Below the pieces are notes generated by a model. The model worked only from the letters and a program-made list of their open reading frames with translations. It ran no database searches and was not told the DNA's origin. A stretch of 64,000 nucleotides of DNA from Chloroflexota bacterium (lineage in GTDB: Bacteria > Chloroflexota > Dehalococcoidia > UBA2247 > RBG-13-53-26): contig VGOE01000002.1 in assembly GCA_016876035.1 (NCBI GenBank), positions 1,231 to 65,230 on the forward strand. Reading direction: 5' to 3'. A program made the translations under genes and the position numbers. Of the stretch, positions 4,104 through 53,472 are shown in pieces. Position 1 is the stretch's first letter, and every line of letters begins with the position of its first letter.

Positions 4104-4339
4104 GTGAGATGGGCTATCGTGGCAATATTCCTTAACAATATACGCTTCACGATGGGCGAGAGTGATTAGTTGCCATTGGGCAGCGTGAAGTGCCAAAGCA
4201 GCCACTGGCAGCAGTGCTGAGATTAACTGGCTTCGTTCGGCATGAAAGTCTGAGTTGTCAAACATACTCGATGGCACAGTATTGACAATCTCTAGATCGG
4301 TAGCGCACCTGAAACCGTCGGCAGAGGGGTGATCTTGAA

Positions 4340-4732: not shown

Positions 4733-5477
4733 AGAACTGAGACCCAATATATATCAGCTACCGGCAGAAAAACCTGGGAGCCATGTCTACCTCATAAAAG
4801 GAGAAGCCAAGAATCTACTCATCGATACTGGGGTTACCGCCAAGTTCGCTCAGCTTGCCAGCCAGTTGCAGAAATTGGGCCTGGGTGTAAAGGATATACA
4901 TTTCGTCATTCTCACTCACGAACACTTCGACCACATAGGGGCCACCACCTTTTTCGATACGGCGGTTATTGCGGCTCACGCCCTGGCCGCAAACAAGATC
5001 GAACTTCAAGATGAGTTTGTAACCTACAACAAATACTTCAATATTCCCTCCAAGCCTTTCTATGCCAACCTCTGGCTGGAGGACAAGATACTGGTAGACC
5101 TGGGCAACTATAAGTTACAGGTACTTCATACCCCGGGACACAGCTCAGGATGCATCTGTCTCTATGAGCTTAGGGAGAAGGTGCTTTTCTCCGGAGATAC
5201 CGTTTTCTCTGGCGGGCTTCTTTCAGATATTGGTAGCTCGGGTAATATCAGCGACTATGTAAGTTCGTTACAGCGATTGGCTAATCTCAAAGTGGAAGCG
5301 CTTTACCCTGGACACGGGCCTATCTCTTCTGCTCCTGGAGAAGACATCAGTCGAGCGGTGGCATACGCCCGCACGATGATGGAGGAATCGAAACTACTTT
5401 TTGAAGCCCTGGCGAAGAGCGAGTCCCGACTGAAGGTCTTGAAAAAGTTTGGTAAGAAGCCTATTCAAACGGAATAA
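4689..5477 (+). CDS. MBL-fold metallo-hydrolase. The start is ambiguous between 4689 and 4713, and the ORF overlaps the 3' end of the cNMP-binding gene.
   Basis: It has the THEHFDHIG (HxHxDH) motif and downstream His/Asp ligands (HTPGHSSG, SGD). It may be translationally coupled to the upstream gene. Confidence 0.75.
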   Translation: MDGRTKDKMETSFPKELRPNIYQLPAEKPGSHVYLIKGEAKNLLIDTGVTAKFAQLASQLQKLGLGVKDIHFVILTHEHFDHIGATTFFDTAVIAAHALAANKIELQDEFVTYNKYFNIPSKPFYANLWLEDKILVDLGNYKLQVLHTPGHSSGCICLYELREKVLFSGDTVFSGGLLSDIGSSGNISDYVSSLQRLANLKVEALYPGHGPISSAPGEDISRAVAYARTMMEESKLLFEALAKSESRLKVLKKFGKKPIQTE

Positions 5478-6567
5478 CGCGCCCGGCTACAAGAGCCAGA
5501 AGTGGAGGTGGACCATCAAACTGGGAAAATTTGCACTAGGCATAGTCGGTTCACTGGCGATAGTACTCCTCGGTATTCATTTCCTCCTTCCCTCCTTTTC
5601 CCGCTCGGCTCTCTCTCTTCCTCTGTCAACGAAACTAACTGTCATCTCGCATGATGTGTTTGTGAAAGAGGGGGATTCGGGAAATTGGGAGAGGATAGCA
5701 ACAGAGGCAAGCCTAAAAGAAGGGAACTGGGTGAAGACTTCCTCCAAAGGGCGGGCTGTTATCACCTTCTTCGAAGGTAGCTCCACCGAGATTGAGCCTG
5801 ATACCGTTGTCTGCCTTGAAGAATTGTTCTCAACTCTCAAAGGTTCCAGCACAATAAGGCTGAATCAGCAGGCGGGCCACACATGGAGCAGCGTGGGAAG
5901 ACTCTTTGACCCAGCGTCACGCTTTGAGGTAACGACGACAGCGGCTGCAGCAGTAGTGCGAGGCACACTTATTGGTATTGATGCAGAAGAAGATGGACAC
6001 ACTACAGTCAAGGTTTTTGCAGGCGAGGCAGGGGTCAGAGGTGAAGGGCATGAGGTAACTGTATCTGCTGGCTGGCAAACCACAGTCAACCCTGGTCAAC
6101 CACCATCCCCTCCCTCCCTGATCCCTCCCCCATCACGCCAGCTCACCGTGTCTATAGGCTTATCTGCCTGGCTTCAGATAATTGACCCCCTGGGCAGAAA
6201 CACCGGCATGATTCCCCCGGGGTTCGGGGTTAACCGGATCCCCTTTAGCATTACCACGATTGCCGCCGAGGAGCAAACTGTGACTATAAATGATCCTGTG
6301 GCTGGAAAATATTTCATTGCCTTTTATGCGCAGGATAATGGCTCAGTTCGAGTGACTGCCAAGGCCACTTCACAGAATGGGTTCAGTCAGCAAGAAAACC
6401 GAGAATTGGAGGTTAAGAAAGGCTGGGGTTACTACATTTCACTGGAACTGGATGTTGATGAGCAAGGGGTTATCACGTCTCTGGTTTCTGGGGAGGTTAG
6501 GGCCCTGGAGCCTGGCTTCGTCGCCGACAAGTTTTATGGCATCAAATACAGGCCTTATGACTCATGA
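5449..6567 (+). CDS. FecR-domain membrane protein, the usual partner of CHASE2 sensors. The only in-frame start is a TTG at 5449.
   Basis: A single N-terminal TM helix (FALGIVGSLAIVLLGIHFLL) is followed by a FecR-like region (VITFFEGSSTEIEPDTVV), then a Pro-rich linker and an uncharacterised C-terminal domain of about 150 aa. It lies directly upstream of the CHASE2 cyclase. Confidence 0.6.
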   Translation: MVRSLFKRNNAPGYKSQKWRWTIKLGKFALGIVGSLAIVLLGIHFLLPSFSRSALSLPLSTKLTVISHDVFVKEGDSGNWERIATEASLKEGNWVKTSSKGRAVITFFEGSSTEIEPDTVVCLEELFSTLKGSSTIRLNQQAGHTWSSVGRLFDPASRFEVTTTAAAAVVRGTLIGIDAEEDGHTTVKVFAGEAGVRGEGHEVTVSAGWQTTVNPGQPPSPPSLIPPPSRQLTVSIGLSAWLQIIDPLGRNTGMIPPGFGVNRIPFSITTIAAEEQTVTINDPVAGKYFIAFYAQDNGSVRVTAKATSQNGFSQQENRELEVKKGWGYYISLELDVDEQGVITSLVSGEVRALEPGFVADKFYGIKYRPYDS

Positions 6568-6651
6568 CAGTTTCCAACCGAATGCCGGAACATAAGGAGG
6601 ACCAGATGTGCTTGTCTGCCAATGCCTTATTGGGATTAGGGACGAGCTAAC

Positions 6652-8436
6652 ATGTTTTCCTATCTAAAAAGCCTTCTACGAAAAGGGACGAGAAAACAAA
6701 GGAGGTTACGAAACCACTCTCTAATCCTGTTGAGCTTAGGAGTAGTTTTTGGGCTGATTGTCTTTTCCATCCAGCCCTTCAGTAGCTTCAATTGGCGGCT
6801 TAAGGATTCTCTCTTCAACTCCAGAGCACCTACACCTGACATTGTCATTGTTGCCATTGACGACGAGACCTTACAGACTTACGGAAGGCTGGGCGACTGG
6901 TCCCGTTCCCTGCACGCCCAGGCCATAGATAATTTGAAAGCAGCCCAGGCAGAGGTAATCGGCTTTGATGTGCTATTCGCCGAGCCAGCAGAGGGCGATA
7001 CCGACCTGGAAGCAGCGATATCGGATGCCGAGAATGTCATCATGCCGGTTGTGGGTACTGGTCTTTTGAAGACAAAAGGAGAGGTTGTCTTCAATGATTT
7101 TGTTACCCCCACCACGGCTTTTTCCAGTGTCCCCGCCGCTCTCGGGCATGTTAACGTGCTTGTTGATGGTGACGGGACGGTACGCCGCCTCCCTGTCATC
7201 GCTAGTGATGTTTCTGGGGGAACCTATTCCTCTTTCTCCACAGCCATAGTTTCGGTGGCACGGGGCGAGCCTCCCCCCGATATCCCTACGGACAGCTCCA
7301 GGGGCATGCGCATTAATTATGTTGGTGGTCCTGGATCCTTTCCCCGCATCTCCTATAAGGACGTGATCACGGGGGATTTCGACCCACGGTTAGTTAGAGG
7401 AAAGATAGTGCTTATTGGCACAACCGCTGTAGGTAGTGGAGACTTGTTTAGCACCCCTGCCCCTGGTGGGCAAATGTATGGCGTCGAAGTACACGCAAAC
7501 GCCATAGATACCATTATCACAGGTAAATTTGTTGCCGATTCCGGGGGTGGAATTACTTTGCTGGCCATCCTCCTCACGGCAGCAGTATGTGGCGTGTTTC
7601 TGCCGCGATTGACGTTGCGGAGGAGCGGCCTGCTCACCGCGGCACTCCTCGGAGCCTTCATTGGGGCTGTTATTGTGTGTTTTGGCAAAGGCTATATGCT
7701 AGACATCATTTACACCCCAATAGCACTCGCCCTCTTCTTCGTAGGCGTGGTCCTCTGCCGCGTGACCGCTGAGATGGCCGATAGGCAGGAGGTCACCGGC
7801 CTTTTCGGCAAGTATGTCTCCCCGCAGGTTGCCGGGGCTATCATTGCGATGGCTGATAAGGATGAGCTGACTCTCACTGGCGAGAAACGTGAGGTAACGG
7901 TCCTTTTTGCGGATATGCGTGGGTTTACCAAACTCAGTAGCGGACTGGAGCCTGGTAAGGTCGTTGACATACTCAACACCTACTTTTCAGTTATCATCGA
8001 TTGCATCAATGCCAATGGCGGAATGGTTAATAAGTTTGCTGGTGACAACATAATGGCCATCTGGAACGCTCCCCAGAGCCAGCCAGAGCACGCTTTTCTG
8101 GCGGTCAAGGCAGCTCTTGAGAGCCAAAAAGCCATAGACGAGCTCAACCGAAAGTCAGGTCATGTTTCCCCGGTGGAATTTGGCATAGGTATCAATACTG
8201 GGGAGGCGACCGCTGGGAGCATAGGTTCCAAAGGAAGAGCGGAATACAGTGTAATTGGAGATACGGTTAACCTTGCGTCACGTATTTGCGGCGCTGCACC
8301 CGGAGGGCGAGTCTGGATAGGTTGGCAAAGTTATAAGAAAGTAAAGGAGAACGTGGTGGCAAGCCAACTCGAACCACAACACTTCAAGGGGAAAGAGGAG
8401 GCTTTTGCGGTTTATGAGGTAAGAGCCCTCGTGTGA
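6652..8436 (+). CDS. CHASE2-sensor adenylate/guanylate cyclase (class III nucleotidyl cyclase)
   Basis: An N-terminal TM helix and a periplasmic CHASE2-like domain are followed by three or more TM helices. The C-terminal cyclase domain carries LFADMRGFTKLS, KFAGDNIMAIWNAP and GINTGEATAG motifs. Confidence 0.85.
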   Translation: MFSYLKSLLRKGTRKQRRLRNHSLILLSLGVVFGLIVFSIQPFSSFNWRLKDSLFNSRAPTPDIVIVAIDDETLQTYGRLGDWSRSLHAQAIDNLKAAQAEVIGFDVLFAEPAEGDTDLEAAISDAENVIMPVVGTGLLKTKGEVVFNDFVTPTTAFSSVPAALGHVNVLVDGDGTVRRLPVIASDVSGGTYSSFSTAIVSVARGEPPPDIPTDSSRGMRINYVGGPGSFPRISYKDVITGDFDPRLVRGKIVLIGTTAVGSGDLFSTPAPGGQMYGVEVHANAIDTIITGKFVADSGGGITLLAILLTAAVCGVFLPRLTLRRSGLLTAALLGAFIGAVIVCFGKGYMLDIIYTPIALALFFVGVVLCRVTAEMADRQEVTGLFGKYVSPQVAGAIIAMADKDELTLTGEKREVTVLFADMRGFTKLSSGLEPGKVVDILNTYFSVIIDCINANGGMVNKFAGDNIMAIWNAPQSQPEHAFLAVKAALESQKAIDELNRKSGHVSPVEFGIGINTGEATAGSIGSKGRAEYSVIGDTVNLASRICGAAPGGRVWIGWQSYKKVKENVVASQLEPQHFKGKEEAFAVYEVRALV

Positions 8437-8485
8437 GCCTCCTCGGCAAGAACACATAACACTGGCTATCAGGAGGAAGACAAAG

Positions 8486-10246
8486 ATGTCATTCTTAAGC
8501 GCGTTACAGGGTGAGGAACTCACTATCTTAGAACAGTACCTCAGCCCTGTGCACTTCCCGCGCAACAGTTGCATTATGCGCGAAGGTGATCCAGGCGATG
8601 GGTGCTACATTATTGATGCCGGAACAATCCGTCTTGAGCTACAGAACGTGGAAACGGATACGGATAGTGTCCTGGGCTATTTGGAGGCAGGATCGTTTCT
8701 AGGGGAGTTCAGTTTGCTTGATGGCAGACCGCGATCTGCGACTGCTTACGCACACACAGACGTCAAAGGGCGCTGGTTCTCCAAGCAGAGTTTTGAAGAA
8801 ATGTGCCAGCAACATTCTAGAGTTGGCTTGATGATATCAATGGCTTTGGGTCAAGACCTTGCCACAAAACTGCGTGACTTTAACAAAAGACTTGCTGGTT
8901 ACATATTCGCCGATCAGATTGACGAGGATACAAACCGGATGGTTGCCCGCGCTGTAAAGGCCCAACAACATTTTGAAGAGTGGCCAGAAGACCGTGTCGA
9001 CGCCTTGCTACAGGATGTATCGCAATCCATAGCGGCACACGCTCAAGAGTTGGCCGAAGCAAATGTGGCCGAAACAGGCATAGGCAATGTTGAAGATAAG
9101 ATAACTAAGATCCGGTTTGCCAGCCTTGAGGTGTACAGAACGATAGCCGGCCGTTCGGCTGCGGGGCTACTCAGGACAGACGCACAAACCCGTGTTACGG
9201 AGATCGCCAGCCCGGTTGGGGTTGTACTCGGTCTAATTCCTGTGACAAATCCCGTGTCTACCGTTGTTTTCAAGGTTCTCGTCACTCTCAAAGGACGAAA
9301 TGCCGTCATTCTCAGTTGTCATCGCGATGCTTTGAAAGTCGGCGGCCAGGCGTGCGATATCATCCGGGATGTACTGGAGCGGCACGGAGCGCCAAAGGAT
9401 CTGGTGCAAACGGTGTGGCGACGAGCTAGCAGGCAGAAAACGATGATGTTTATGCATCACCCCGACGTTAAGCTCATTTTGGCGACTGGTGGCACGAGTA
9501 TGGTGAAAGCTGCCTATAGCTCTGGCACCCCCGCTATCGGGGTCGGCCCGGGTAATGCTCCCGTCCTGATTTGCGCCGATGCCGATTTAGCCAAGGCCGC
9601 ATCAGCAATCATTCAGAGCAAGTCCTTTGACAACGGCGTTATCTGCGGATCCGAAAACAACCTGGTTGTTGTTGCTTCGGTTCGTGATAGTTTCGTCGAA
9701 TCGCTGGAGGCGCATGGTGCAATCATACTGCGACCAGATGAGAAGAATCGCTTTGCTGCACAAGCCTTCGATCATGAGTCTTCAACTCTGAAGAAATCCA
9801 TCGTCGGCAAGTCTGCCCAGTTCATTGCTGACTTGACTGGTGTCCGCCGAGGCAAAGATGTCCGGCTAATTGTCATTCCTATAAGGCAAGATGAACTTCG
9901 AGGTCCCTTTGGACATGAAAAGCTGGCCCCTGTTCTCTCTCTGGGCACAGTGAAAGACGAGGAAGAAGGTCTTCAGGTCTGCAGGCAGATTCTGCTCAAC
10001 CAGGGGCAAGGGCATACAGCCATTATCTATACCGAGAATCAAGAACTGATGCAACGGTTTGGTCGCGAGATCCCGGCCAGCCGAGTTTTGGTCAATGCAC
10101 AAGGTGCTCAGGGTTGTGTCGGCCTCGGCACCGGCCTGACCCCGTCCTTTACACTAGGTTGCGGGACATTCGGGGGCAATTCCACGACCGACAATGTGAC
10201 CTATACGCACCTGATCAATGTTAAGAGGCTAGCCCTTAACCTGTAG
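8486..10246 (+). CDS. Fusion of an N-terminal cNMP-binding domain to an AdhE/EutE-type CoA-acylating aldehyde dehydrogenase domain
   Basis: The N-terminal 140 aa carry the cNMP-binding cassette (FLGEFSLLDGRPRSATAYA). The remainder resembles the ALDH half of AdhE, including FDNGVICGSENN with the catalytic Cys, and GVGPGNAP. A strong AGGAGGA Shine-Dalgarno sequence precedes the start. Confidence 0.8.
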   Translation: MSFLSALQGEELTILEQYLSPVHFPRNSCIMREGDPGDGCYIIDAGTIRLELQNVETDTDSVLGYLEAGSFLGEFSLLDGRPRSATAYAHTDVKGRWFSKQSFEEMCQQHSRVGLMISMALGQDLATKLRDFNKRLAGYIFADQIDEDTNRMVARAVKAQQHFEEWPEDRVDALLQDVSQSIAAHAQELAEANVAETGIGNVEDKITKIRFASLEVYRTIAGRSAAGLLRTDAQTRVTEIASPVGVVLGLIPVTNPVSTVVFKVLVTLKGRNAVILSCHRDALKVGGQACDIIRDVLERHGAPKDLVQTVWRRASRQKTMMFMHHPDVKLILATGGTSMVKAAYSSGTPAIGVGPGNAPVLICADADLAKAASAIIQSKSFDNGVICGSENNLVVVASVRDSFVESLEAHGAIILRPDEKNRFAAQAFDHESSTLKKSIVGKSAQFIADLTGVRRGKDVRLIVIPIRQDELRGPFGHEKLAPVLSLGTVKDEEEGLQVCRQILLNQGQGHTAIIYTENQELMQRFGREIPASRVLVNAQGAQGCVGLGTGLTPSFTLGCGTFGGNSTTDNVTYTHLINVKRLALNL

Positions 10247-10363: not shown

Positions 10364-10795
10364 CTAAAGCGCGTAGATCTCTTTGCCAAAAGTGCGAACC
10401 CAGTTCCTCTCCAGAACCTTCAGCGCTTCTTCGATCCTATCGACGCCAAGAATGACAATGGCTTGCCCGCTTTCTCCTCTGCCTAGGTAGGGGTAAAGGT
10501 GCAGTACATTGATGTTAGCTGCTTTTAGAGGCTTGAGCACCGCCTGAAGGCCGCCAGGATGGTCTGGGACCTCTACGGCAATGACATCAGTCTCCTTAAC
10601 GTAATATCCCTGGCTCTGCAGGACATTGACAGTCTTGGTGGGGTCATCAGTGACAAACCTCACAGTGCTAATGTCAGTGGTGTCGGCCACTGAGATTGCC
10701 CTGATGTTTATCCCTTCAAGGCCTAACCGCTCACTCACCTCCAGAAGCTTCCCTGGCACATTTTCCAGGGTAACCGAAATCTGTTTTACAAACAT
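10364..10795 (-). CDS. Tandem ACT-domain protein, last gene of the four-subunit OFOR operon
   Basis: It contains two ACT-like beta-alpha-beta-beta-alpha-beta units (VTLENVPGKLLEVSERLGLEGINI, VEVPDHPGGLQAVLKPLKAANINV). Confidence 0.7.
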   Translation of the reverse strand: MFVKQISVTLENVPGKLLEVSERLGLEGINIRAISVADTTDISTVRFVTDDPTKTVNVLQSQGYYVKETDVIAVEVPDHPGGLQAVLKPLKAANINVLHLYPYLGRGESGQAIVILGVDRIEEALKVLERNWVRTFGKEIYAL

Positions 10796-10825
10796 GCCAT
10801 ACCCCCCAATTTGTCCGTATATGAA

Positions 10826-11356
10826 CTAAAGGAGATCGCATCCTGCCATCAGGGCTTTACTGTCGATGGTGATCAGTTTCGTCTTATCCTTCAAGGTGCT
10901 CTTCAGTCCTTCAACTAAGGCACCAATGGAGACCAAGTTGCTCTTCTTGATGAATGCCCCCATCATCACCATGTTGGCCGATCTGGGACTGCCCAACTCC
11001 TCGGCGATACGACTGGCCGGAATCCCCAAAAGCTCGATATCTCCCCGGGAAACCTCCGCTTTGATCAGAGACGAGTTGAAGAACAAAGCACCGCCTGACT
11101 GGACCTTATTTTGGAATCTGATCAAGGAGGGTTGATTCATGGCAACAACGAGATCCGGAGCCGAAGCCACTGGTGAGGCAATCTCTTCATCTGATATGGC
11201 CACCGTGCAGTTGGCGGTACCCCCTCGGACCTCAACACCATAGGAGGGTAAATAGGTGACGTATTTCCCTTCAACCATGGCTGCCTGAGCCAGAACAAGG
11301 CCCATGGAGAGGACTCCCTGACCTCCAAAGCCAGCGAAGATCGTCTTAATCAGCAT
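10826..11356 (-). CDS. 2-oxoacid:ferredoxin oxidoreductase, gamma subunit
   Basis: The GFGGQGV motif is typical of POR/VOR gamma subunits. Confidence 0.8.
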   Translation of the reverse strand: MLIKTIFAGFGGQGVLSMGLVLAQAAMVEGKYVTYLPSYGVEVRGGTANCTVAISDEEIASPVASAPDLVVAMNQPSLIRFQNKVQSGGALFFNSSLIKAEVSRGDIELLGIPASRIAEELGSPRSANMVMMGAFIKKSNLVSIGALVEGLKSTLKDKTKLITIDSKALMAGCDLL

Positions 11357-12101
11357 CCTTTTGTCCAGTGAGATCCTTCATGACTCCCATCGGAAACTCT
11401 TTGATCATCTCTTTGCCAATCCATTGCCAAGACTCTAACGGGTCCCTCTTCCAATTGATGGGACACGGAGAGAGTATCTCCACCAGTGAGAAACCCAGAT
11501 CATCGAGCTGCACCTGAAAAGCCTTGCGGATGGCTCTTTTCGTCCTTCTGATGTTGGCCGGAGAATCCACCGCTGTTCGCTCAACATAGACCACGCCTCT
11601 GAGCATTGCCAGCATCTCGCTCACTCTGATGGGATATCCTTCCAGCCTGGCATCCCGTCCCAGAGGAGTGGTGGTGGTCTGTTGGGCCAGCAGGGTAGTC
11701 GGAGCCATCTGCCCACCAGTCATTCCATAAACGGCATTATTGACGAAAATGGCTGTTATCCTTTCCCCTCTGTTGGCAGCGTGGATGGTCTCTGCAGTGC
11801 CGATGGCTGCCAGATCACCGTCCCCTTGGTAGGTAAACACTATTGTTTCAGGAGAAGCCCTTTTTAGGCCGGTAGCTACTGCCAGCCCTCTGCCATGGGC
11901 CGATTCTGCCATATCAAGATCAAGATAGTTGTAGGCGAAGACGGAGCAGCCAGCCGAGTTGACCCCGACAATCCTGTCTTGAAGGTTCATCTCTTCGATA
12001 ACTTCAGCCACCAGTCGATGGATAATCGAATGCCCGCAGCCCGCACAGTAATGAAAAGGAGTTCTCTTCAGCAATTTGGGTCGGCTATATACCTTTTCCA
12101 T
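11346..12101 (-). CDS. 2-oxoacid:ferredoxin oxidoreductase, beta (TPP-binding) subunit
   Basis: It has a CAGCGH iron-sulfur motif and a GDGD TPP/Mg motif. Confidence 0.85.
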   Translation of the reverse strand: MEKVYSRPKLLKRTPFHYCAGCGHSIIHRLVAEVIEEMNLQDRIVGVNSAGCSVFAYNYLDLDMAESAHGRGLAVATGLKRASPETIVFTYQGDGDLAAIGTAETIHAANRGERITAIFVNNAVYGMTGGQMAPTTLLAQQTTTTPLGRDARLEGYPIRVSEMLAMLRGVVYVERTAVDSPANIRRTKRAIRKAFQVQLDDLGFSLVEILSPCPINWKRDPLESWQWIGKEMIKEFPMGVMKDLTGQKDAD

Positions 12102-12108
12102 CTCTCTG

Positions 12109-13176
12109 TTACTTGAGACCTTTCTGATAGTAATGGCGTGAGATTACCCGTAGAACCTCGCTGGGAGTGGGGATTACTCCTCCTGGCCTCCCGTAAAAGA
12201 AGACCTCCCCTTTGCCGTTCAAGGCCAGTTGCACATCCTCCAGCATCTGGCCCATGTTCAACTCGAAGTCCAGGAAGTACTTCGTCCTATTGGCGAGTTC
12301 CTCCACCTTGTTGGAAGGGAACGGCCATAGTGTGATGGGTCGAAACAGGCCAACCTTCAGGCCACTGGCACGCGCATTCTTAACCGCGCCGCGCGCAATG
12401 CGGGCCGCTATGCCAAAAGCCACCACAATCAGCTCAGCATCCTCAACCAGGAACGTTTCACAGGCAGTCTCTTCTTCCCTGATTAGCTGATATCTCCTGT
12501 ACAAGCTCCAGTTGATTTCCTCCATCTCGCTCGGGTTTGACGTACAGGTCTTGACAATCCGTCTCGGACGTCCCTTTGCTCCTCTTAAGGCACTGCTCCT
12601 TACTGGCAACCTTTCAGGAGGTTCGTGTTTGAATTCTACTGGCTCCATCATCTGCCCCAGCACCCCATCCGCCAGGATGATCACCGGAATCCTATACGTG
12701 TCGGCCAGGTCGAAAGCCCGATGAGTCATGTCTGCCAGTTCCTGTACCGATGAAGGCGCCAGAACTATGGTTCGATAGTCCCCGTGCCCCCCACCCTTGG
12801 TGGCCTGGAAATAATCTGACTGTGCAGCAGATATAGTTCCCAAGCCCGGCCCGCCCCGGGATATGTCGACAATAACAGACGGAAGCTCACAGCTTGCCAA
12901 ATAAGAGATTCCTTCCTGTTTGAGGCTCATTCCCGGACTAGACGAAGATGTCATTACTCTGACCCCGGCCAGGCTGGCTCCGAATACCATGTTTACGGCA
13001 GCAATCTCACTTTCCGCCTGAATGAAAGTACAGCCTTTCCTCTTGCTCAGGTGAGTAGCCATGTACTCGGTCAGTTCGTTCTGAGGGGTGATGGGGTAAC
13101 CAAAATAGCACTGACAGCCAGCCCTGATGGCGGCTTCTCCAACCACGCTGTTGCCATCCATGAGAACCTTAGCCAC
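12109..13176 (-). CDS. 2-oxoacid:ferredoxin oxidoreductase, alpha subunit
   Basis: The 355-aa alpha-subunit-like protein overlaps the delta gene by 8 nt. Confidence 0.85.
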   Translation of the reverse strand: MAKVLMDGNSVVGEAAIRAGCQCYFGYPITPQNELTEYMATHLSKRKGCTFIQAESEIAAVNMVFGASLAGVRVMTSSSSPGMSLKQEGISYLASCELPSVIVDISRGGPGLGTISAAQSDYFQATKGGGHGDYRTIVLAPSSVQELADMTHRAFDLADTYRIPVIILADGVLGQMMEPVEFKHEPPERLPVRSSALRGAKGRPRRIVKTCTSNPSEMEEINWSLYRRYQLIREEETACETFLVEDAELIVVAFGIAARIARGAVKNARASGLKVGLFRPITLWPFPSNKVEELANRTKYFLDFELNMGQMLEDVQLALNGKGEVFFYGRPGGVIPTPSEVLRVISRHYYQKGLK

Positions 13177-16234: not shown

Positions 16235-17101
16235 TTACTTGAACTCGTTCATTAACTCGCGAAACTGCAAAGGATTGATTTCTTCCCTCACTAAAGGCGC
16301 TGCGGCAGAAACTCCGATGTATTCTTCAAAAAGAGGCCTTTCCTTTTGATAAATAACGCCTATAGGTATTCGGTCGCCCCATTCCAGTGCTTTATTGAAA
16401 GCGGCAGCCCTGTCGCCAGGATTGTAACCGACCTCAGCCTCTAATTTGTAGACCCTCTGCTTATACCACTGAAACGTGTTCTTGTTGTTAAAGGTAACGC
16501 AAGGCTGAAGGATTTCGATAAGCGCAAAGCCTCTGTGTTTGACTCCTATTTCTACCAACCTTGCTAGATGGTCAACCTCGCCAGCAAACCCGCGGGCTAC
16601 AAAGCTGCAATCACATGCCACTGCCAGCGCAAGGGGCCTGAGGCTGACCCAGGCTCCCTGGGGGTTCATTCTGGTGGTGTAGCCCAGGTCAGTAGTGGGA
16701 CATGCTTGACCTTTAGTTAGAGCATAAACCTGGTTGTTATGCACTAAATAGGTGATATCAACATTTCGGTTCATAGAGTGAATGAAGTGATTGCCGCCTT
16801 CACCGTAGGCGTCACCGTCACCGGAAATGGCGATAACTGTAAGCTCGGGATTGACTATCTTGGCGGCGGTGGCCGCAGGAATGGGCCTGCCGTGAAGTTC
16901 ATTCAATACATGGCATCTGGTATAGTGAGGGAATTTGCCAGCCTGGCCTATGCCTGACACCATCAGCACCCGGTGGGGCTCAATCTGGAGCGATACCAGC
17001 GCTTTTCTAACAGCACGCAAAATTCCGAAATTCCCGCAACCGGGGCACCAGGCGATTTCTGACGCCGCGGCGTAGTCTTCAGTAGTTACCTTGGTCACCA
17101 T
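16235..17101 (-). CDS. 2-oxoacid(2-oxoglutarate-type):ferredoxin oxidoreductase, beta subunit (two-subunit KorAB-like)
   Basis: It has the WCPGCGNFGIL and GDGDAYGEGG TPP motifs. Confidence 0.85.
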   Translation of the reverse strand: MVTKVTTEDYAAASEIAWCPGCGNFGILRAVRKALVSLQIEPHRVLMVSGIGQAGKFPHYTRCHVLNELHGRPIPAATAAKIVNPELTVIAISGDGDAYGEGGNHFIHSMNRNVDITYLVHNNQVYALTKGQACPTTDLGYTTRMNPQGAWVSLRPLALAVACDCSFVARGFAGEVDHLARLVEIGVKHRGFALIEILQPCVTFNNKNTFQWYKQRVYKLEAEVGYNPGDRAAAFNKALEWGDRIPIGVIYQKERPLFEEYIGVSAAAPLVREEINPLQFRELMNEFK

Positions 17102-18841
17102 TCAGGATGCCTCCTTTTTCACACCATTGACGATGTATTGTGCTGAGAACGGGCGTCCGTCGAACTTCAGGATAGTGGCGTCCGCCTTGATACCGGTCTC
17201 TCGGCGAGTCAGTTGGGCTAGTTGGCCGGTGGCATTACTCTCAATAAAGATGTTCTTCTTAGAGCCGCGCAGGATCAAAGCAACATCGTCTGCCGGGAAA
17301 GGCCATATCTCGTTCAGGTGCAGAACATTTACGGGAAGGCCCTCTGCCACCAGTAGCTCCTGAGCCTCCTTTATGGCGCCATAAGTACTTCCCCAGCCTA
17401 CCAAGGTGATTTTGGCACCGCGCTTCTTGTGAACGCGAGGTTTGCCTAGTTCACTTCTGAGACCGTCGAGTTTCCTCATGCGCTTGAGCACCATTTGCCT
17501 TCTGGTCTCGGCGTCTTCGATAGAGTGTCCCTCCTCGTTGTGCTCGTCAGAATCCGTTGCCACAAGGGCTTTCCCCACCAGAGGTAAGGCACGTGGGGAT
17601 ACGCCGGAATCAGTGATAAGATGCCTTTTGTAGGCGGTTAGCTGGTTCACTTCTTGTTCAGAGAGAAGCTCACCCCTATCAATTGTTACCTGGCTCAGAT
17701 CAAAAGGCTCGACAGTGCTGTAGGAATCAGCGAGGTCGTGATCAGTGAGGATGATTACCGGCGACTGATACTTTTCGGCCAAGTTGAAAGCCTTGATGGT
17801 CAGCCAGAACGCATCATCGATGCCGCCTGGAGCCAGGATCGCCCGTGGAAACTCCCCATGCCCGGCATGGAGGGCAAACCAAAGCTCACCCTGCTCTGTT
17901 CTTGTAGGTAGTCCTATCGCCGGACCGGGGCGCTGTCCCAGTACGACAACAACAGGTGTTTCCGTCATCCCAGCAAGGCTCAGGCCTTCCACCATAAGGC
18001 AAAACCCGCCGCCGGATGTGGCAGTCATGGCTCTGACGCCAGCATAGCCAGCACCTACGACCATGTTGATGGCCGAAATCTCATCCTCTGTCTGAATTAC
18101 TTTGACACCAAAATCTCTGCCCTTCTGGGCGACGTACTCCAAAATCGACGTGGTGGGTGTCATTGGATAACCAGCTACAAACTTGCAGCCGGCAACCATG
18201 GCACCAAAAGCAACTGCTTCATGGCCGGTGAGAAATATCTTGGTGCTTGCTCTTCGTGCTTTCAGACGCTGACCAAATTTCTTTCCCCTGTGCTGTAGGG
18301 CATAATCATAACCGGCTCGGGCAGCCTTCACATTGTCCTCGGCAACTTTCTCCCCGTGCCTGCTGAATTCCTGACGCAGAACTCCGGCAAGTAGGTCAAA
18401 ATCATATTCCACCGCCCCCAAAGCGGCACCAAGGGCAACCGTGTTTGACATTATTCTGTTTGCGGTCGACTGGATGGCCAGTTGCTCAAGCGGTACATCA
18501 AGCATAATTCCTTTGTCTGCTAACCCGCTCCTAACCGTTCGTTCATCGAGGATAACTAACGCCTCTCCCTCTGGCTTCATTTCATCTAGATGCCGGTCTA
18601 CTGTATCCTTGTTCAGAGCCAGAAGAATACTTACCTCCTCTGACGGTGCCCGCACTTTTCTATCTCTGACCCTCACCCGCGAGAAACTGTGACCACCCCT
18701 GATTCGGGACTCAAAGTCCTGGTCAGAATAGACATAGTAACCGCCTCTCATCATGGCCTTCGACAGGATAAAACTCACGGACTGAATTCCCTGCCCAGCT
18801 TCACCACCGATCATGAAGTTGAAATCGACCGTCATAGCCAC
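17102..18841 (-). CDS. 2-oxoacid:ferredoxin oxidoreductase, alpha subunit (fused gamma-like N-terminal domain plus alpha domain)
   Basis: The N-terminus has GGEAGQGIQS (gamma-like). The C-terminal region resembles OFOR alpha subunits. It abuts the beta gene with a 0-nt gap. Confidence 0.85.
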   Translation of the reverse strand: MAMTVDFNFMIGGEAGQGIQSVSFILSKAMMRGGYYVYSDQDFESRIRGGHSFSRVRVRDRKVRAPSEEVSILLALNKDTVDRHLDEMKPEGEALVILDERTVRSGLADKGIMLDVPLEQLAIQSTANRIMSNTVALGAALGAVEYDFDLLAGVLRQEFSRHGEKVAEDNVKAARAGYDYALQHRGKKFGQRLKARRASTKIFLTGHEAVAFGAMVAGCKFVAGYPMTPTTSILEYVAQKGRDFGVKVIQTEDEISAINMVVGAGYAGVRAMTATSGGGFCLMVEGLSLAGMTETPVVVVLGQRPGPAIGLPTRTEQGELWFALHAGHGEFPRAILAPGGIDDAFWLTIKAFNLAEKYQSPVIILTDHDLADSYSTVEPFDLSQVTIDRGELLSEQEVNQLTAYKRHLITDSGVSPRALPLVGKALVATDSDEHNEEGHSIEDAETRRQMVLKRMRKLDGLRSELGKPRVHKKRGAKITLVGWGSTYGAIKEAQELLVAEGLPVNVLHLNEIWPFPADDVALILRGSKKNIFIESNATGQLAQLTRRETGIKADATILKFDGRPFSAQYIVNGVKKEAS

Positions 18842-19146: not shown

Positions 19147-19944
19147 TTAAGTGACGACCTCCTCCACATGCCACTCAATCACACTGCTTGACCATACACG
19201 TCCCACTGCTATTTCCAGCACACGCCTATTTGGTTTTGGTATGTCTAATAGCGGCGGCAGGACGCGGTTATCAAACTGTCCCAGGAACGGACACTGCTTT
19301 TGAAGGGACAGTATCGTAGTCCATGCGCCACCGTAAACTACATAATCTAATGCCTTGGCCTGGGGCTCAAGGTGTTCTTGCGCATGGCAGCACACCCTAT
19401 CTAGAAAGAACTCTATTTGCTTTTCCCGGTGCCGGCGGAAACGCTGTTGTGAGGAACCACCCTTCTTGTGCCGTCCGTGGACAAGACCAGTTCCCACTTT
19501 GCTGGTGATAAGGTTTTCTCCCCGGCAAAGGCCGACGGCATAGGCCCCCAAACGTACCAGGATGAGGCCAATCCTGAGATCGGTCCTGAGCAAAGATCGC
19601 AGTGGTTCAACGTTGTACCCGTTAGTGCAGCATTCATCCGCAATTGGAAAGGGCGGTAGAATCAGGCACTTTCGTGAGCAGCTCCAAAATAGGACTGCCC
19701 CCGTTTTTGAACCAGCGGCAAAATCGGGCAATTCCCAGGGCATGTCCGGCGGGTCAATAGCCCTTTCCAGCAAATCCCTAATCTCCGGCAACGATAGCCC
19801 CAGTGGTAGATATAGTGACCTCGCTGCATCGGCAGTAGTTTCCAGTTCATCAAGGTAGCTGATCATCTTTCTCCTGTTGAGAAAGAATAGTCTAGGGATT
19901 AACACGCCAGGGTTAGCTTCCACCTGCGGTTCCTCCGACAACAA
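19147..19944 (-). CDS. Vms1/ANKZF1-like (VLRF1-type) eRF1-fold protein, a putative peptidyl-tRNA hydrolase
   Basis: The motif LVHGRHKKGGSSQQRFRRHREKQ resembles the eRF1 GGQ loop (HGRGGQSALRFARLR) in its GxxQ variant as seen in Vms1. It lies 12 bp downstream of mutS2 on the same strand. Confidence 0.55.
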   Translation of the reverse strand: MLSEEPQVEANPGVLIPRLFFLNRRKMISYLDELETTADAARSLYLPLGLSLPEIRDLLERAIDPPDMPWELPDFAAGSKTGAVLFWSCSRKCLILPPFPIADECCTNGYNVEPLRSLLRTDLRIGLILVRLGAYAVGLCRGENLITSKVGTGLVHGRHKKGGSSQQRFRRHREKQIEFFLDRVCCHAQEHLEPQAKALDYVVYGGAWTTILSLQKQCPFLGQFDNRVLPPLLDIPKPNRRVLEIAVGRVWSSSVIEWHVEEVVT

Positions 19945-19956
19945 GGCATACTACAG

Positions 19957-22338
19957 CTAAAGCTCAACAATAGTTACCCCATCCCCGCCTTCGCCCTTCT
20001 GGCCAGGACGAAAGGACTTGACTAGAGGATGAGCACCCAGAATTTCCCTCACCATGTTGCGTACTGTGCCAGTGCCAAAGCCATGAATGATACGTGCTTC
20101 GCTCAAATTTGCCAAAGAAGCATCATTAAGGTAGATATCAAGTGATGGCTCCACCTCGCCAGCTCGCTTTCCCCGCAGGTCAAGTTCACGAGAAACCACC
20201 CGTCGTATAATCTGTTTTTTCACCGGGGCAAATTCGGGGGCGGCACTGGGATGCGTTACCTTTTCCACGCTGTCGAGGCTGAGCCTGAACCTGGATTGCC
20301 CAGCTTGGACTTCGACCTGCTGTGTTTCCTGCGATACCGAGAGCACTGTTGCCTGCAGATTTGCTTCTCTCAGCCACACAGTATCACCCGCAGTGATCCT
20401 GCTGTCGTCTATCGTGTCCCTCTCTGTTTTTTCCTCTGCCTTCACCTGCCATACCTCGCCCTCCAAGCGCTTCTCTACAACAGCCATAGTTTTCCGTGCT
20501 TGCTCTATTCTCTCTTTCGACTTTTCTTTGCGCAATTCCGATGCAGCCTGGCGAATCTCCTTAAGCAGATCTGCTGCCTCACGGAGAACTCTGTCCCGTG
20601 TCTCTTGGATAACCTTTCGACCCTCCACTTTTGACCGTTGCAGCTCATCTTCTAACTCGAACTTCTTTCGTTGTAGTTCATCCCACTCCTTTTTCAGGTC
20701 AAGGCGAAGGGCTTCAGCCCCTTGTTTCTCTTCCCTCAGGTCGGCGAGGAGGGTCTCCAACTCCCGAGCTCCGCTTGCTACCATGCCCTCGGCATTGGCG
20801 ATAATCTCAGGGGCCAGGCCCAGGCGTGAAGCAGTAGCCATTGCATTGCTGCCACCAGGGATGCCCACTATCAGGTGATAGGTCGGTGCCAGCGTGACTG
20901 GGTCAAAGTCCAGCGAGGCATTTTGCAACCCGGGAGTGATGTGCGCGAATATCTTCAGATCGCCGTAATGCGTGGTAGCTACAGTCATCGTTTTCCGCGA
21001 TAAGAAGGAGAGTAGAATGGCACGGGCTAGGGCGGAACCTTCCGCTGGGTCAGTACTCGTACCCAGCTCGTCCAAGAGGACCAGGCTATTTTCCGTAGCG
21101 CCGTTGATAATACGCACGATGTTACCTATATGCCAGCTAAAACTGGAAATCGTCTGCTCGATGCTTTGCTCGTCGCCAATGTCGGCGAATACGCTGTCAA
21201 AGACAGGGATGCGACTTTCGGCCGAGGCAGGAATTGGCAGGCCAGCCTGTGCCATCAAGCTGAGCAGGCCAATCGTCTTAAGGGCGACCGTCTTACCACC
21301 TGTATTAGGTCCTGTGATCACGAGGACGGAGAAGTCCCGCCCTATCTCAACAGAAAGCGGCACTGCTCTTTCAGCCAGTAACGGATGTCTGGCTTCAATA
21401 AGCCTCAGAACACCAGTCGGTTCACCAGCGGTCGTTTTCCCACCTTCGTTGAACTTGGTAAGGATCGGCTCAACGGCCCCGGCCTTCCTTGCGAGTCTCG
21501 CCTTTGCCAGTGCCAGATCCAGCTCGGCCACCAAGGCTATACTACGAGAGATTTCTGCCTCATTCGCCCCGACTTTGGCACTGAGGTCTCTCAGAATCCT
21601 TTCCGTCTCGCGCTTCTCCTCTACCGCCAGCTCTCTCATAGTGTTTCCCATCTCCACAGTGGTCCACGGCTCAACAAATGCAGTGGCTCCAGTGTTAGAG
21701 ACGTCGTGTACAATGCCTTTCATCTCTTTTCGGAACTCGATCTTAACTGGAACGACGTACCTACCCTCCCGCTCAGCGATAAAATGCTCCTGGATTATCT
21801 TCCGCCCTTTAGGCGACCTCATTACGGCTTCCAGGCGGTCTAGCAACTGCTGGCGCACTTCTCTCAATTGCTGCCTGGCCGCAGCTAGCCTGGTCGAGGC
21901 ATGATCCAGTAGTTCACCGCTGGGTGCCAGGCAGGCAGAAATATCTTCCTCGAGATGGCGAAGATCGGATATGCCCTTGGCGATACTCCAGAGCAGCGGG
22001 ACTTTCTCTGACCACTTGCTGAGGCTGCTGTGCACCTGGTACATAGCGGCTAAGGTCTTCTGGATTTCTATCAAGCTTTCAGGTGCCATGATCTTACCCC
22101 GTGCTGCCATCTTCACCCCTTCCCGCACGTCCGTAACTCCTCCGATGGAGAAGCCTGGCTCTAAGGATAGGAGATAGCGAGCCTCGGCTGACTGCCTTAG
22201 CAGGAGGGAAGCCAGTTCATAGTCACGAAGCGGTTGCAGATTGAGCGCCAATTCGCGGCTGGCTGAGAAGGAAGTAAATGAGGCGAGTATCTCCCTTATC
22301 TGAGGGAATTCGAGCATTTGCAGGCTTTTGTCATCCAT
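19957..22338 (-). CDS. mutS2: Endonuclease MutS2 (MutS domains III-V plus a C-terminal Smr domain)
   Basis: A Walker A motif (GPNTGGKT) is present. The protein has the typical MutS2 length, and a C-terminal Smr domain (LDLRGKRAGE...IHGFGTG). Confidence 0.9.
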   Translation of the reverse strand: MDDKSLQMLEFPQIREILASFTSFSASRELALNLQPLRDYELASLLLRQSAEARYLLSLEPGFSIGGVTDVREGVKMAARGKIMAPESLIEIQKTLAAMYQVHSSLSKWSEKVPLLWSIAKGISDLRHLEEDISACLAPSGELLDHASTRLAAARQQLREVRQQLLDRLEAVMRSPKGRKIIQEHFIAEREGRYVVPVKIEFRKEMKGIVHDVSNTGATAFVEPWTTVEMGNTMRELAVEEKRETERILRDLSAKVGANEAEISRSIALVAELDLALAKARLARKAGAVEPILTKFNEGGKTTAGEPTGVLRLIEARHPLLAERAVPLSVEIGRDFSVLVITGPNTGGKTVALKTIGLLSLMAQAGLPIPASAESRIPVFDSVFADIGDEQSIEQTISSFSWHIGNIVRIINGATENSLVLLDELGTSTDPAEGSALARAILLSFLSRKTMTVATTHYGDLKIFAHITPGLQNASLDFDPVTLAPTYHLIVGIPGGSNAMATASRLGLAPEIIANAEGMVASGARELETLLADLREEKQGAEALRLDLKKEWDELQRKKFELEDELQRSKVEGRKVIQETRDRVLREAADLLKEIRQAASELRKEKSKERIEQARKTMAVVEKRLEGEVWQVKAEEKTERDTIDDSRITAGDTVWLREANLQATVLSVSQETQQVEVQAGQSRFRLSLDSVEKVTHPSAAPEFAPVKKQIIRRVVSRELDLRGKRAGEVEPSLDIYLNDASLANLSEARIIHGFGTGTVRNMVREILGAHPLVKSFRPGQKGEGGDGVTIVEL

Positions 22339-27100: not shown

Positions 27101-27832
27101 ATGCTAACTGTGGCCATCAGATTGGATGTTATCGAAGAGGTAGAGCTTAGCTATGAAATACCCTATCTTACTGGCAAAGGTGAGGTGATCGATCGCACCA
27201 CCGTCTGCATTAACGAACGGAGACAGGGAGTCAACATCAGTTATGCGCTGGTGGAGTGCACAGAGGAGCACCTGGACAGTCTCTTCCCTCCGGAGGGCGT
27301 GAACACGCTGGCGCGAATGACAAAACGGATCCTGCGAGACCTGGGGATGAAGCCAGCGAGGATCATCCTGCAACTCAGAGAGCACAGCCCGGCCCACAAC
27401 TGGCACTCGTTGGAAGGGAGAGCGCCAGTCAATAAGCAGAGGGATTCGGTGCTAATCATCATCACTAAGCCTCCCTTTTTGTATAAGTTTGGACATGAAC
27501 TGGTACTGTGGCATCAAGCGATGCATGCTAAGGATAGGTGGGAGCACAGGTTTCCCTCTGCTCACCCGATGGTAGAGGCCGGTGAATGGCTGGATGCTCT
27601 GTGGCACTTTTCCATCGATGGAAGATTGGAAGGCTGGGGGAGGCCACACTACTCCAGAACTGAGCGACTGGAAGAAGCCACTAGAGTGCTCAAAGGTCTC
27701 TGTCGCGGTGAGAACCTTCAGTCCCGCGTGGGCGAGGTATGTGATCGACTTTGGGGGAAAGAGACGACCTTTGCCCAGCTACTGGACATTGGGAAGAAAC
27801 TGGGACTGGAGCCTGCTGCTGGGCTCCAGTAA
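27101..27832 (+). CDS. Hypothetical protein of 243 aa
   Basis: The long ORF has no recognisable family. It contains the His-rich segment FGHELVLWHQAMHAKDRWEH. The Shine-Dalgarno sequence is weak. Confidence 0.4.
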   Translation: MLTVAIRLDVIEEVELSYEIPYLTGKGEVIDRTTVCINERRQGVNISYALVECTEEHLDSLFPPEGVNTLARMTKRILRDLGMKPARIILQLREHSPAHNWHSLEGRAPVNKQRDSVLIIITKPPFLYKFGHELVLWHQAMHAKDRWEHRFPSAHPMVEAGEWLDALWHFSIDGRLEGWGRPHYSRTERLEEATRVLKGLCRGENLQSRVGEVCDRLWGKETTFAQLLDIGKKLGLEPAAGLQ

Positions 27833-30295: not shown

Positions 30296-30586
30296 ATGAG
30301 GGAATACGAGTTGACGGTGGTCTTCAGCCCTGAGATTTCTGATGAGGATATGGCCGACGAAATCGAAAAGGTCAACCGGTTGGTTACTGAAAAGGGAGGC
30401 GTTCTTAATGGCGAGGTGCAGCGGTGGGGGAAGAAGAGGTTAGCTTACCCGATACGGCGCTTCAAGGAAGGGAACTACGTGTTGACCCGGTTTAAGATTA
30501 GCCCTGGCCAGACAGCAGAGTTGGAAAGGAACTTGCATAGTCTGGAGGTAATCCTGCGTCATTTGTTGGTGAAATTAGAGGAGTGA
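30296..30586 (+). CDS. rpsF: 30S ribosomal protein S6
   Basis: The N-terminus is MREYELTVVF. It is the first gene of the rpsF-ssb-rpsR cluster. Confidence 0.9.
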   Translation: MREYELTVVFSPEISDEDMADEIEKVNRLVTEKGGVLNGEVQRWGKKRLAYPIRRFKEGNYVLTRFKISPGQTAELERNLHSLEVILRHLLVKLEE

Positions 30587-30697
30587 GGGCTCTTACTCTG
30601 TCACTCCGAGCAGTGGAGGATGATTTAGCTCCTTGCCTATCTCAGGATGGTAGGCGAGATGCCCAGGGTCCTCGCGGCGCGATTGGAGGTCAGACAG

Positions 30698-31117
30698 ATG
30701 GCTAATTTGAACAAGGTGATGATCATCGGCAATGTAGGGACTGATCCTGAGATGCGCTTCACCCCTAATGGGAATCCGGTAACTACCTTCCGTATTGCCA
30801 CCAGCCGGATCTTCACAAGCTCGGAAGGGGAGCGAAGACAAGAGACGGAGTGGTTCACGGTAGTTACCTGGAACAAGCTGGCGGAGAGCTGTAACCAGTT
30901 TCTAGCAAAAGGCAGACGAGCCTATGTGGAAGGCAGGCTGCGGACTCGGGCATGGGAGAGCCAAGACGGGCAGAAGCGAAGCCGGGTGGAGATAGTGGCA
31001 GACCGAGTCCTTTTCCTCGACAGGCAGGGGACTGCCCTGCTTCCCGAGGAGGCCAGGGTAAGTGCCGAGGAGGCCAAGGGAGGCGATGATTTGGCGGCGG
31101 AAGACCTCCCTTTCTAG
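30698..31117 (+). CDS. ssb: Single-stranded DNA-binding protein (start MANLNKVMIIGN, GGAGGT Shine-Dalgarno)
   Basis: It has an OB-fold SSB N-terminus and an acidic C-terminal tail ending DDLAAEDLPF. Confidence 0.9.
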   Translation: MANLNKVMIIGNVGTDPEMRFTPNGNPVTTFRIATSRIFTSSEGERRQETEWFTVVTWNKLAESCNQFLAKGRRAYVEGRLRTRAWESQDGQKRSRVEIVADRVLFLDRQGTALLPEEARVSAEEAKGGDDLAAEDLPF

Positions 31118-31135
31118 ATAAGGACGGGAAAGAGA

Positions 31136-31429
31136 GTGGTTAAAGGAAGAGCAAAGCCCAGGAGACCAAGCAGAGGGCAGAGATTTGTGCCCAGACGTAA
31201 GGTGTGTGTTTTCTGCGCTGACAAGAAAGAGATAGACTACAAAGCTGTGGAATCTCTACGTCGATATATATCGGACCGGGGCAAACTTGAACCGCGGCGT
31301 AGAACTGGTAACTGTGCTAAGCACCAGCGGTTTCTTGCCCAAGCAATTAAGAGGGCACGCCACTTGGCTCTACTGCCGTATACGGTAGATCATATCTACC
31401 AAATGGGAGGTTTTGGCCCGAGGGGCTAG
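31136..31429 (+). CDS. rpsR: 30S ribosomal protein S18
   Basis: It has the S18 core [24 protein letters not shown]. Confidence 0.85.
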
Positions 31430-50997: not shown

Positions 50998-51010
50998 GTT
51001 GCGGGGCAAG

Positions 51011-52811: not shown

Positions 52812-52821
52812 TACAAAGCAG

Positions 52822-53436: not shown

Positions 53437-53472
53437 TATGCGCGGCACGCATGTTGAGAGAGGAAAGCGAAT

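Follow-up and report, generated by a model that had tools for sequence, protein, structure and literature searches.

Of all the steps in ribosome-associated quality control (RQC) of bacteria, nascent-chain release is understood least, and the locus described here raises the question of whether MutS2 and a release-factor-like protein that are encoded next to each other act together in that process. The locus lies in a window of 64,000 nt (the whole stretch of DNA that was analyzed, whose positions serve as coordinates throughout) from a Dehalococcoidia bacterium. It consists of two head-to-tail open reading frames (ORFs) on the minus strand, 19957..22338 (793 aa), assigned to mutS2, and 19147..19944 (265 aa as the longest ORF), assigned to the acVLRF1 family. 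An earlier note on this DNA had described mutS2 with an eRF1-type gene directly downstream on the same strand, and the ORF list agrees with that description for both genes. Taken together, the results below make it very probable that the two genes are functionally coupled in ribosome rescue.

The identity of the downstream protein has been probed using a combination of profile searches and structure prediction. The ORF matches PF18859, the 'Actinobacteria/chloroflexi VLRF1 release factor' family, with 101.9 bits against a cutoff of 27.1, and this is the best model of the aeRF1 superfamily, followed by baeRF_family10 (50.8 bits) and eRF1_2 (33.9 bits, 4.5e-8). Two relatives that are 65% identical (P0080 and P0082) carry the NCBI names 'acVLRF1 family' or 'Vms1/Ankzf1 family peptidyl-tRNA hydrolase'. 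A phmmer search gave an ungapped alignment of the stretch HGRHKKGGSSQQRFRRHRE with the part of archaeal aRF1 around its GGQ motif (4af1; E 9.6e-9), with KGGSSQQRF in the window protein facing KGGQSAQRF. The AlphaFold2 (AF2) model, built with 27 homologs, has a mean predicted local distance difference test score (pLDDT) of 88 and a predicted template modeling score (pTM) of 0.83; the GGSSQ loop is flexible in this model, and pLDDT drops to 66-70 in this block. A Foldseek search of the PDB with the model returned aRF1 (4af1, 4.3e-11) as the best match along with eRF1, Balon, and Pelota/Dom34, and the model also matched 60S-bound yeast Vms1 (6r84_R) over 192 columns with an E value of 2.4e-5. The earlier note had proposed an eRF1 fold, a counterpart of the eRF1 GGQ region, and a Vms1-like character for this protein. 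This structural guess was correct, as indicated by the PF18859 match, the phmmer alignment to aRF1, the AF2 model, and the Foldseek matches, and the Vms1-like character is further borne out by placement of the family in the Vms1-like clade.

The domain organization is similarly informative. The acVLRF-1 family was defined computationally in 2019, when its GGxSQ motif and its lost codon-binding domain were noted, and a characteristic short extension at the N-terminus was described for it (Burroughs and Aravind, PMC6514570). The window protein has the same features, namely a short N-terminal extension followed by an eRF1 M-like domain, a GGxSQ loop, and no codon-recognition domain. Neither eRF1_1 nor eRF1_3, the stop-codon-binding and C-terminal domains, gave a Pfam match, and the score against the classical aRF1/eRF1 equivalog TIGR03676 was 57 bits, well below the cutoff of 234.7. 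Searches for the Pfam bVLRF1 and eukaryotic VLRF1 families returned no match at E <= 1, and the Pfam scan revealed no Rei1-type zinc finger, ankyrin repeats, VIM, or treble-clef, leaving the core only. The protein resembles Vms1 in fold and proposed role, yet it is not a member of the eVLRF1 family. Sequence and model together show it to be an acVLRF1 family member with the eRF1 M-domain fold and a predicted peptidyl-tRNA hydrolase. The protein itself is not new, as the family and its predicted hydrolase role were published in 2019 and are included in Pfam and NCBIfam. A separate observation concerns residues outside of the loop: C185 and C218 (265-aa numbering; window 19293-19392) are near-invariant across the family, while His187 in 'VCxH' is invariant only within the 27 close homologs, and together C185, H187, and C218 could form a metal or redox site.

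The upstream gene is identified as mutS2 by the equivalog TIGR01069, which it matches with 792 bits (cutoff 400) over aa 3-793. The Walker A (GPNTGGKT) and Walker B (LVLLDELG) motifs are both intact in the translation. No Pfam match at E <= 1 was obtained for the mismatch-recognition domains MutS_I and MutS_II, and the Pfam matches are limited to MutS_V, MSSS, Smr, and a weak MutS_III. The Smr domain scores 77 bits against a cutoff of 25.7 (1.3e-21), so that the MutS2 with an Smr domain recognized in the earlier note is upheld by both models, and the MSSS match (24.7 bits, cutoff 26.8) leaves the KOW-like part borderline. Within the Smr domain, DLR replaces the nuclease motif DxH and the GxG motif is retained as HGFGTG; DLRG is present in 75 of the 87 scorable MutS2 copies from the fetched loci. 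The DLR/GxG state is that of B. subtilis MutS2, a protein that detects collisions and splits ribosomes but leaves the mRNA uncut (Park et al., PMC10897456), and collided-ribosome splitting by MutS2 is known solely for B. subtilis (PMC10897456). The window MutS2 is orthologous to B. subtilis MutS2/RqcU, and a splitting function may be ascribed to it by orthology.

Conservation of the gene pair was examined in a forward scan of one genome per GTDB species, which yielded 80 loci with acVLRF1 relatives of 52-84% identity, almost all labelled Dehalococcoidia. An alignment of 37 sequences was too divergent for the genome scan and a narrower one was used instead; consequently, the 80 loci all come from a close clade and deeper lineages were sampled singly. 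With the window MutS2 as a tblastn query, MutS2 was found directly upstream on the same strand at 74 of 75 informative Dehalococcoidia species loci, the other 5 of the 80 being uninformative with <230 nt of upstream DNA. The distance between mutS2 and acVLRF1 has a median of 37 nt and is <100 nt at 68 of these 74 loci. When nearest neighbors are grouped by sequence, those upstream of mutS2 at 50 loci form 34 clusters, and those downstream of acVLRF1 at 65 loci form 40. Since both flanks vary, the pair is not a remnant of inherited long-range synteny. The pair is also kept in four deeper lineages (P0132, P0135, P0137, and P0148), separated by 1-7 nt or overlapping by 4 nt, where acVLRF1 is 40-43% and MutS2 47-55% identical to the window copies. 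Across 70 loci, the identities of acVLRF1 and MutS2 to the window copies co-vary (r = 0.90). In the window itself, the second of two 2-oxoacid:ferredoxin oxidoreductase sets lies immediately downstream of acVLRF1, a neighbor that is not kept at other loci.

The reverse test made use of a metagenome scan ascertained via MutS2, which provided 80 loci with identities between 80% and 35%. For MutS2 of >= 57% identity and with sufficient downstream DNA, acVLRF1 follows immediately at 8 of 9 loci, and for MutS2 of <= 49% identity it is present in 0 of 58 informative loci (4-kb flanks). All MutS2-linked acVLRF1 proteins fall into one of three clades in a neighbor-joining tree. The adjacency is far beyond chance, and mutS2-acVLRF1 is a clade-wide, selection-maintained operon with reciprocal specificity. 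The synteny on which the earlier note had staked its proposal is therefore found, at 74 of 75 loci and in four divergent lineages with variable flanks; its linkage of mutS2 with VLRF1 stands for one acVLRF1 clade and does not extend to the other two, which do not adjoin MutS2.

The gene model of acVLRF1 required revision. The 265-aa version with a 12-nt gap after mutS2, as given in the earlier note, is merely the longest possible ORF; it begins at TTG 19944, and two in-frame TAG codons lie upstream of this TTG. In the alignment of homolog N-termini, the conserved 'ML.SRRF.LSR.K' corresponds to GTG 19905 in the window and a protein of 252 aa. The NCBI call for the window protein (P0001, 100% identical) is 258 aa, matching GTG 19923, and a GGAGG Shine-Dalgarno sequence at 19932-19936 is located 8 nt 5' of this codon. 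The internal ATG 19866 is not kept across homologs, several of which are without that Met, and the residues preceding it form a confident beta-strand in the AF2 model. With the start at GTG 19905 or GTG 19923, acVLRF1 is probably 252-258 aa long and the spacer after mutS2 is probably 33-51 nt, which replaces the earlier values. No terminator-like site was detected in the spacer, and promoter and terminator scans were not above background. A MutS2-acVLRF1 fusion arising from stop-codon readthrough was considered, as mutS2 and the TTG ORF share a frame, and was rejected: a second in-frame TAG is positioned two codons past the MutS2 stop, and gap lengths at other loci are not multiples of three. 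Scans of the window for tRNA/tmRNA and Rfam families returned nothing connected with the pair.

The fold, the motif, and the conserved operon suggest a mechanism in which the two genes constitute an operon for collided-ribosome rescue. MutS2 would recognize collided ribosomes by means of its KOW-like domain and its Smr domain, which is nuclease-dead (DLR), and its ABC ATPase would split the stalled ribosome to leave a 50S subunit with peptidyl-tRNA; both steps are proposed by orthology to B. subtilis MutS2/RqcU. The co-expressed acVLRF1 would then dock on the 50S complex at the A-site side left vacant, in the way that Vms1 binds the 60S subunit, and its basic GGSSQ loop would enter the peptidyl-transferase center, where it would free the nascent chain of its tRNA. 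Hydrolysis of the ester is favored because the loop retains the di-glycine of true release factors, and cleavage of the tRNA CCA end would be the alternative chemistry. Release by acVLRF1 via one or the other chemistry is likely, and the specific model in which MutS2 splits and acVLRF1 releases by hydrolysis is somewhat favored. The ribosome binding, substrate, and catalysis attributed to acVLRF1 are predictions from sequence, modeling, and analogy.

The loop has been examined across the family. GGSSQ and the following R.F.R.RE are invariant in the 27 close homologs, and GG, the position-4 Ser, RF, and R160 are invariant in 37 diverse family members down to 26% identity. The loop Gln is retained in 113 of 120 close relatives. 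Among 136 cluster representatives (50% identity, recognizable loop), the sequences observed include GGSSQ (48), GGSSA (30), GGQSQ (22), GGSSS (14), GGTSQ (10), and GGWSQ (6). The Gln at loop position 5 has been taken as the catalytic residue (Burroughs and Aravind, PMC6514570). Conservation of a GGSSQQ loop in homologs, which the earlier note had made a test of its proposal, thus holds for the GG, Ser, and RF positions and not for the Gln.

Several observations weigh against the model of splitting by MutS2 and hydrolysis by acVLRF1. The presumed catalytic Gln is replaced by Ala or Ser (GGSSA, GGSSS, or GGQSA) in 46 of the 136 clusters, and three MutS2-linked proteins are among those without it, P0132 and P0137 (both GGSSA) and P0148 (GGSSS). 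In the ungapped alignment to aRF1, the position of the canonical GGQ Gln is occupied by Ser in the window protein. The NCBIfam model NF041024, 'acVLRF1 family peptidyl-tRNA hydrolase', gives the window protein 120.4 bits, narrowly under its cutoff of 125. There are two exceptions inside the linked clade: one of the 75 informative loci (L012, acVLRF1 at 4154-4942) has an M16-like peptidase gene and groEL upstream and no mutS2, and in the reverse direction a mutS2 with 57% identity (L105, 4001-6367) lacks acVLRF1 and has a convergent gene after it. The acVLRF1 proteins of the other clades are all above the Pfam threshold and none adjoins MutS2, and a survey of 3,213 actinobacterial genomes reported neither mutS2 nor rqcH. 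Full-text literature searches found no experimental study of a bacterial VLRF1, and it is from gene order alone that a physical or sequential link between MutS2 and acVLRF1 is drawn.

With respect to the loop, in class-1 release factors the glycines and the backbone weigh more in catalysis than the Gln side chain. Consequently, hydrolysis is compatible with the Gln variation, and the occurrence of many linked members without the loop Gln allows that the acVLRF1 family may use a Gln-independent release chemistry. The same variation may leave room for a non-catalytic or differently catalyzed role of acVLRF1. A further observation on L105 is that the Smr motifs of its MutS2 are degenerate (NLR, HGIATG).

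The chemistry of release is the point at which the closest alternative departs. Vms1/ANKZF1 is currently described as a tRNA endonuclease (PMC11317155), and acVLRF1 could be an enzyme of this type in an otherwise identical pathway, which would be in line with its place in the Vms1-like clade and its match to Vms1-60S structures; the frequent loss of the loop Gln would also be easier to accept if classical GGQ-type hydrolysis did not take place. However, acVLRF1 retains the GG of true hydrolases, in contrast to the single Gly of eukaryotic VLRF1 (GxuQ; PMC6514570), and no recurrent tRNA-repair genes are found beside the pair, whose flanks are variable. An endonuclease is regarded as unlikely, and hydrolase and endonuclease chemistry are inseparable by sequence alone. 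The three MutS2-linked proteins without Gln (P0132, P0137, and P0148) bear on another possibility, that acVLRF1 is a non-catalytic partner that binds the ribosomal A site or peptidyl-transferase center in the manner of Pelota/Dom34-ABCE1 or Balon. Such a partner would aid splitting by MutS2 or block rejoining of the 50S subunit, leaving release to Pth or another factor. Pelota and Balon are indeed among the Foldseek matches, and the pairing of an eRF1 fold with an ABC ATPase has its parallel in Pelota-ABCE1, a comparison that has also been made for SMR and eRF1 families (PMC10897456). Against this stands the invariance of GG, the following Ser, RF, and Arg residues of the loop and helix in 37 sequences down to 26% identity, which is the pattern of an active eRF1-type loop; inactive baeRF-1 families are poorly conserved in the loop region (Burroughs and Aravind, PMC6514570), and acVLRF1 is without the N and C domains needed for Pelota-style contacts with the decoding center and ABCE1. 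A purely structural role for acVLRF1 consequently has a small probability.

It has also been proposed that bacterial VLRF-1 proteins are stand-alone, single-component factors that are independent of other RQC components (PMC6514570). In that case, acVLRF1 would be an ArfB-like rescue or release factor with substrates of its own that is merely co-transcribed with mutS2 in a translation-stress regulon, neither protein passing anything on to the other, and the two clades that do not adjoin MutS2, with one member after an RsmI-like gene and one near rplJ-rplL, are what this would predict. The adjacency in the linked clade is nonetheless near-obligate in both directions, often translationally coupled, and persistent despite turnover of the flanks, and neither a tail to probe the mRNA channel nor a codon-recognition domain is present through which acVLRF1 could sense a stalled 70S ribosome, making an independent factor improbable. 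Finally, the equivalog for MutS2 still bears the name 'endonuclease MutS2' and the fold of the eRF1 M domain is RNase H-like (PMC6514570), such that the pair might instead act on DNA, with MutS2 as the recombination-suppressing endonuclease known from some bacteria and acVLRF1 as a nucleic-acid-processing cofactor. The absence of the Smr nuclease His (motif DLR), the partner's nearest matches in sequence and structure, all of which are ribosome A-site factors, and the lack of recurrent DNA-repair genes in the flanks render a DNA role highly improbable. Anti-phage defense was considered as well and set aside, as neither MutS2 nor acVLRF1 matches PADLOC.

The gene contexts of acVLRF1 away from MutS2 are diverse. 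Two SAR202-like acVLRF1 genes follow an Abhydrolase_10 (PF20091) gene (L085 3986-6762 and L086; L087 3971-6762), and this may be a second conserved partnership; the rest of the gene neighborhood is largely different between L085/L086 and L087. The acVLRF1 genes of P0169 and P0172 have unrelated neighbors. Each seen once, P0409 (SAR202; L178 4158-5744) starts 3 nt past a gene for an RsmI-like 16S rRNA methyltransferase, and P0152, at the base of the linked clade (L177 3367-6320), lies about 1.2 kb from rplL-rplJ. The family is also present in Actinobacteria (PMC6514570), a membership taken here from the literature and the Pfam name. Because of the unlinked clades and the Actinobacteria without MutS2, the acVLRF1 family as such is independent of MutS2, and it is one clade that is coupled to it.

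Comparison with known systems helps to place the pair. The acVLRF1 family has been described as stand-alone, whereas the clade of the window is locked in an operon with MutS2. Vms1/ANKZF1 shares with the window protein a VLRF1-type eRF1-fold core, a Gly-x-x-Gln loop, and a proposed position after splitting; the window protein differs in having GG rather than a single Gly, in being much smaller (about 250 aa) and devoid of accessory domains, and in having MutS2 rather than the RQT complex as the upstream splitter. The eRF1 M-domain fold is common to aRF1/eRF1, Pelota/Dom34, and Balon, with aRF1/eRF1 being the best sequence and structure matches, and Pelota/Dom34-ABCE1 likewise pairs an eRF1-fold protein with an ABC-type ATPase. 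Unlike these factors, the window protein is a single catalytic-type domain without N and C domains, has GGS in place of GGQ, and has no evident GTPase partner. The RQC system of B. subtilis (MutS2/RqcU, RqcH with RqcP/YlmH, and Pth) has an orthologous MutS2 with the ATPase, a KOW-like domain, and a DLR-type Smr domain. In Bacillus, however, release is carried out by Pth after Ala-tailing, whereas the Dehalococcoidia encode a Vms1-like protein with MutS2. Pth reaches the ester bond in B. subtilis only once the Ala tail exposes it (PMC11633108), and a 2024 paper states that Pth acts in Bacillus after Ala-tailing and that no dedicated RQC termination factor is known in bacteria.

This raises the issue of whether RqcH takes part. 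ORF mapping and Pfam scans of large unassigned ORFs located no rqcH in the 64-kb window, and a tblastn search of 1.2 Mb of fetched pair neighborhoods with a B. subtilis RqcH query, a weak test with no positive control, gave no match. At the phylum level, one survey of 1,306 Chloroflexota genomes reports RqcH for about 26% of them and hardly any RqcP or YlmH. Another survey of 41 Chloroflexota genomes lists mutS2 in 35 and rqcH in 26, so that at least 9 of these genomes have MutS2 without RqcH. These numbers fit RqcH-independence at the phylum level, and RqcH-independence of the Dehalococcoidia clade itself is not shown by them. That Dehalococcoidia have a streamlined RQC, in which splitting by MutS2 is followed by a Vms1-like termination factor without RqcH/RqcP alanine tailing, is a tentative and rather doubtful proposal.

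MutS2 was recognized as an RQC factor later than 2019. MutS2 and Smr are absent from the text of the 2019 study that defined the acVLRF-1 family (PMC6514570), and full-text literature searches found no paper linking VLRF1 with MutS2, in keeping with the statement in the earlier note that such a route is experimentally uncharacterized in bacteria. What appears to be new here is an operon with MutS2 that is tight, reciprocal, and clade-wide and that turns a stand-alone prediction into a specific, testable pathway. The coordinates of the pair and its parts are collected in Table 1.

Table 1. Features of the mutS2-acVLRF1 pair in window coordinates (acVLRF1 residues in 265-aa numbering).
Feature	Position	Strand	Details
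acVLRF1 gene	19147..19923	-	258 aa from GTG 19923; core start GTG 19905; longest ORF from TTG 19944
VLRF1 / eRF1-M-like (RNase H-fold) domain, aa 124-255	19180..19575	-	Span of Pfam acVLRF1 match; Foldseek
GGSSQ loop, aa 162-166	19447..19461	-	GGxSQ counterpart of GGQ, in the basic loop HGRHKKGGSSQQRFRRHRE
N-terminal extension domain, aa 14-120	19585..19905	-	Mixed alpha/beta in AF2 model; strand E15-22; block pLDDT 80-96
Intergenic spacer	19924..19956	-	GGAGG 19932-19936; no terminator-like site (sequence read, terminator scan)
mutS2, 793 aa, ABC-type ATPase	19957..22338	-	TIGR01069 equivalog, 792 bits
Smr domain, aa 719-793	19960..20184	-	PF01713, 1.3e-21
MSSS / KOW-like SH3 domain, aa 650-690	20269..20391	-	PF20297, 24.7 bits, E 1.8e-5
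MutS domain V ATPase core, aa 339-519	20782..21324	-	PF00488, 2.1e-30

Other features of the window were recorded in passing. A T-box leader (RF00230, 95.4 bits) at 49187-49454 (+) is situated directly upstream of a seven-gene cluster at 49486-56883 (+), which, by position and gene sizes, resembles a tryptophan biosynthesis operon. A signaling cluster at 4340-10246 (+) encodes a FecR-like protein and a CHASE2-adenylate/guanylate cyclase, followed by a cNMP-binding/aldehyde dehydrogenase fusion (Pfam listing, same organism's contig). The two 2-oxoacid:ferredoxin oxidoreductase sets, at 10364-13176 (-) and 16235-18841 (-), are on either side of a radical-SAM gene. An ORF of 243 aa at 27101-27832 (+) has no Pfam match at E <= 1e-5, and a full-length Tex gene (S1/YqgF/HHH) is present at 38458-40638 (-). 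Three small ORFs in a compact run at 30296-31429 (+) are presumably rpsF-ssb-rpsR, judging from their size and N-terminal sequence.

The MutS2-Vms1-like operon provides a concrete, purifiable candidate for the missing dedicated RQC termination factor. Annotation would benefit as well, given that many Chloroflexota copies of acVLRF1 are labelled 'hypothetical protein' or 'eRF1'. The pair offers a natural system in which to ask whether 50S-peptidyl-tRNA complexes left by splitting can be resolved in bacteria that do not use RqcH, what age the split-then-release logic common with eukaryotes has, and whether VLRF1-type release needs the loop glutamine. If the proposal of a streamlined RQC is true, acVLRF1 would be the first release factor dedicated to RQC in bacteria, and prokaryotes would have their own counterpart of the 'split, then Vms1' sequence of eukaryotes.

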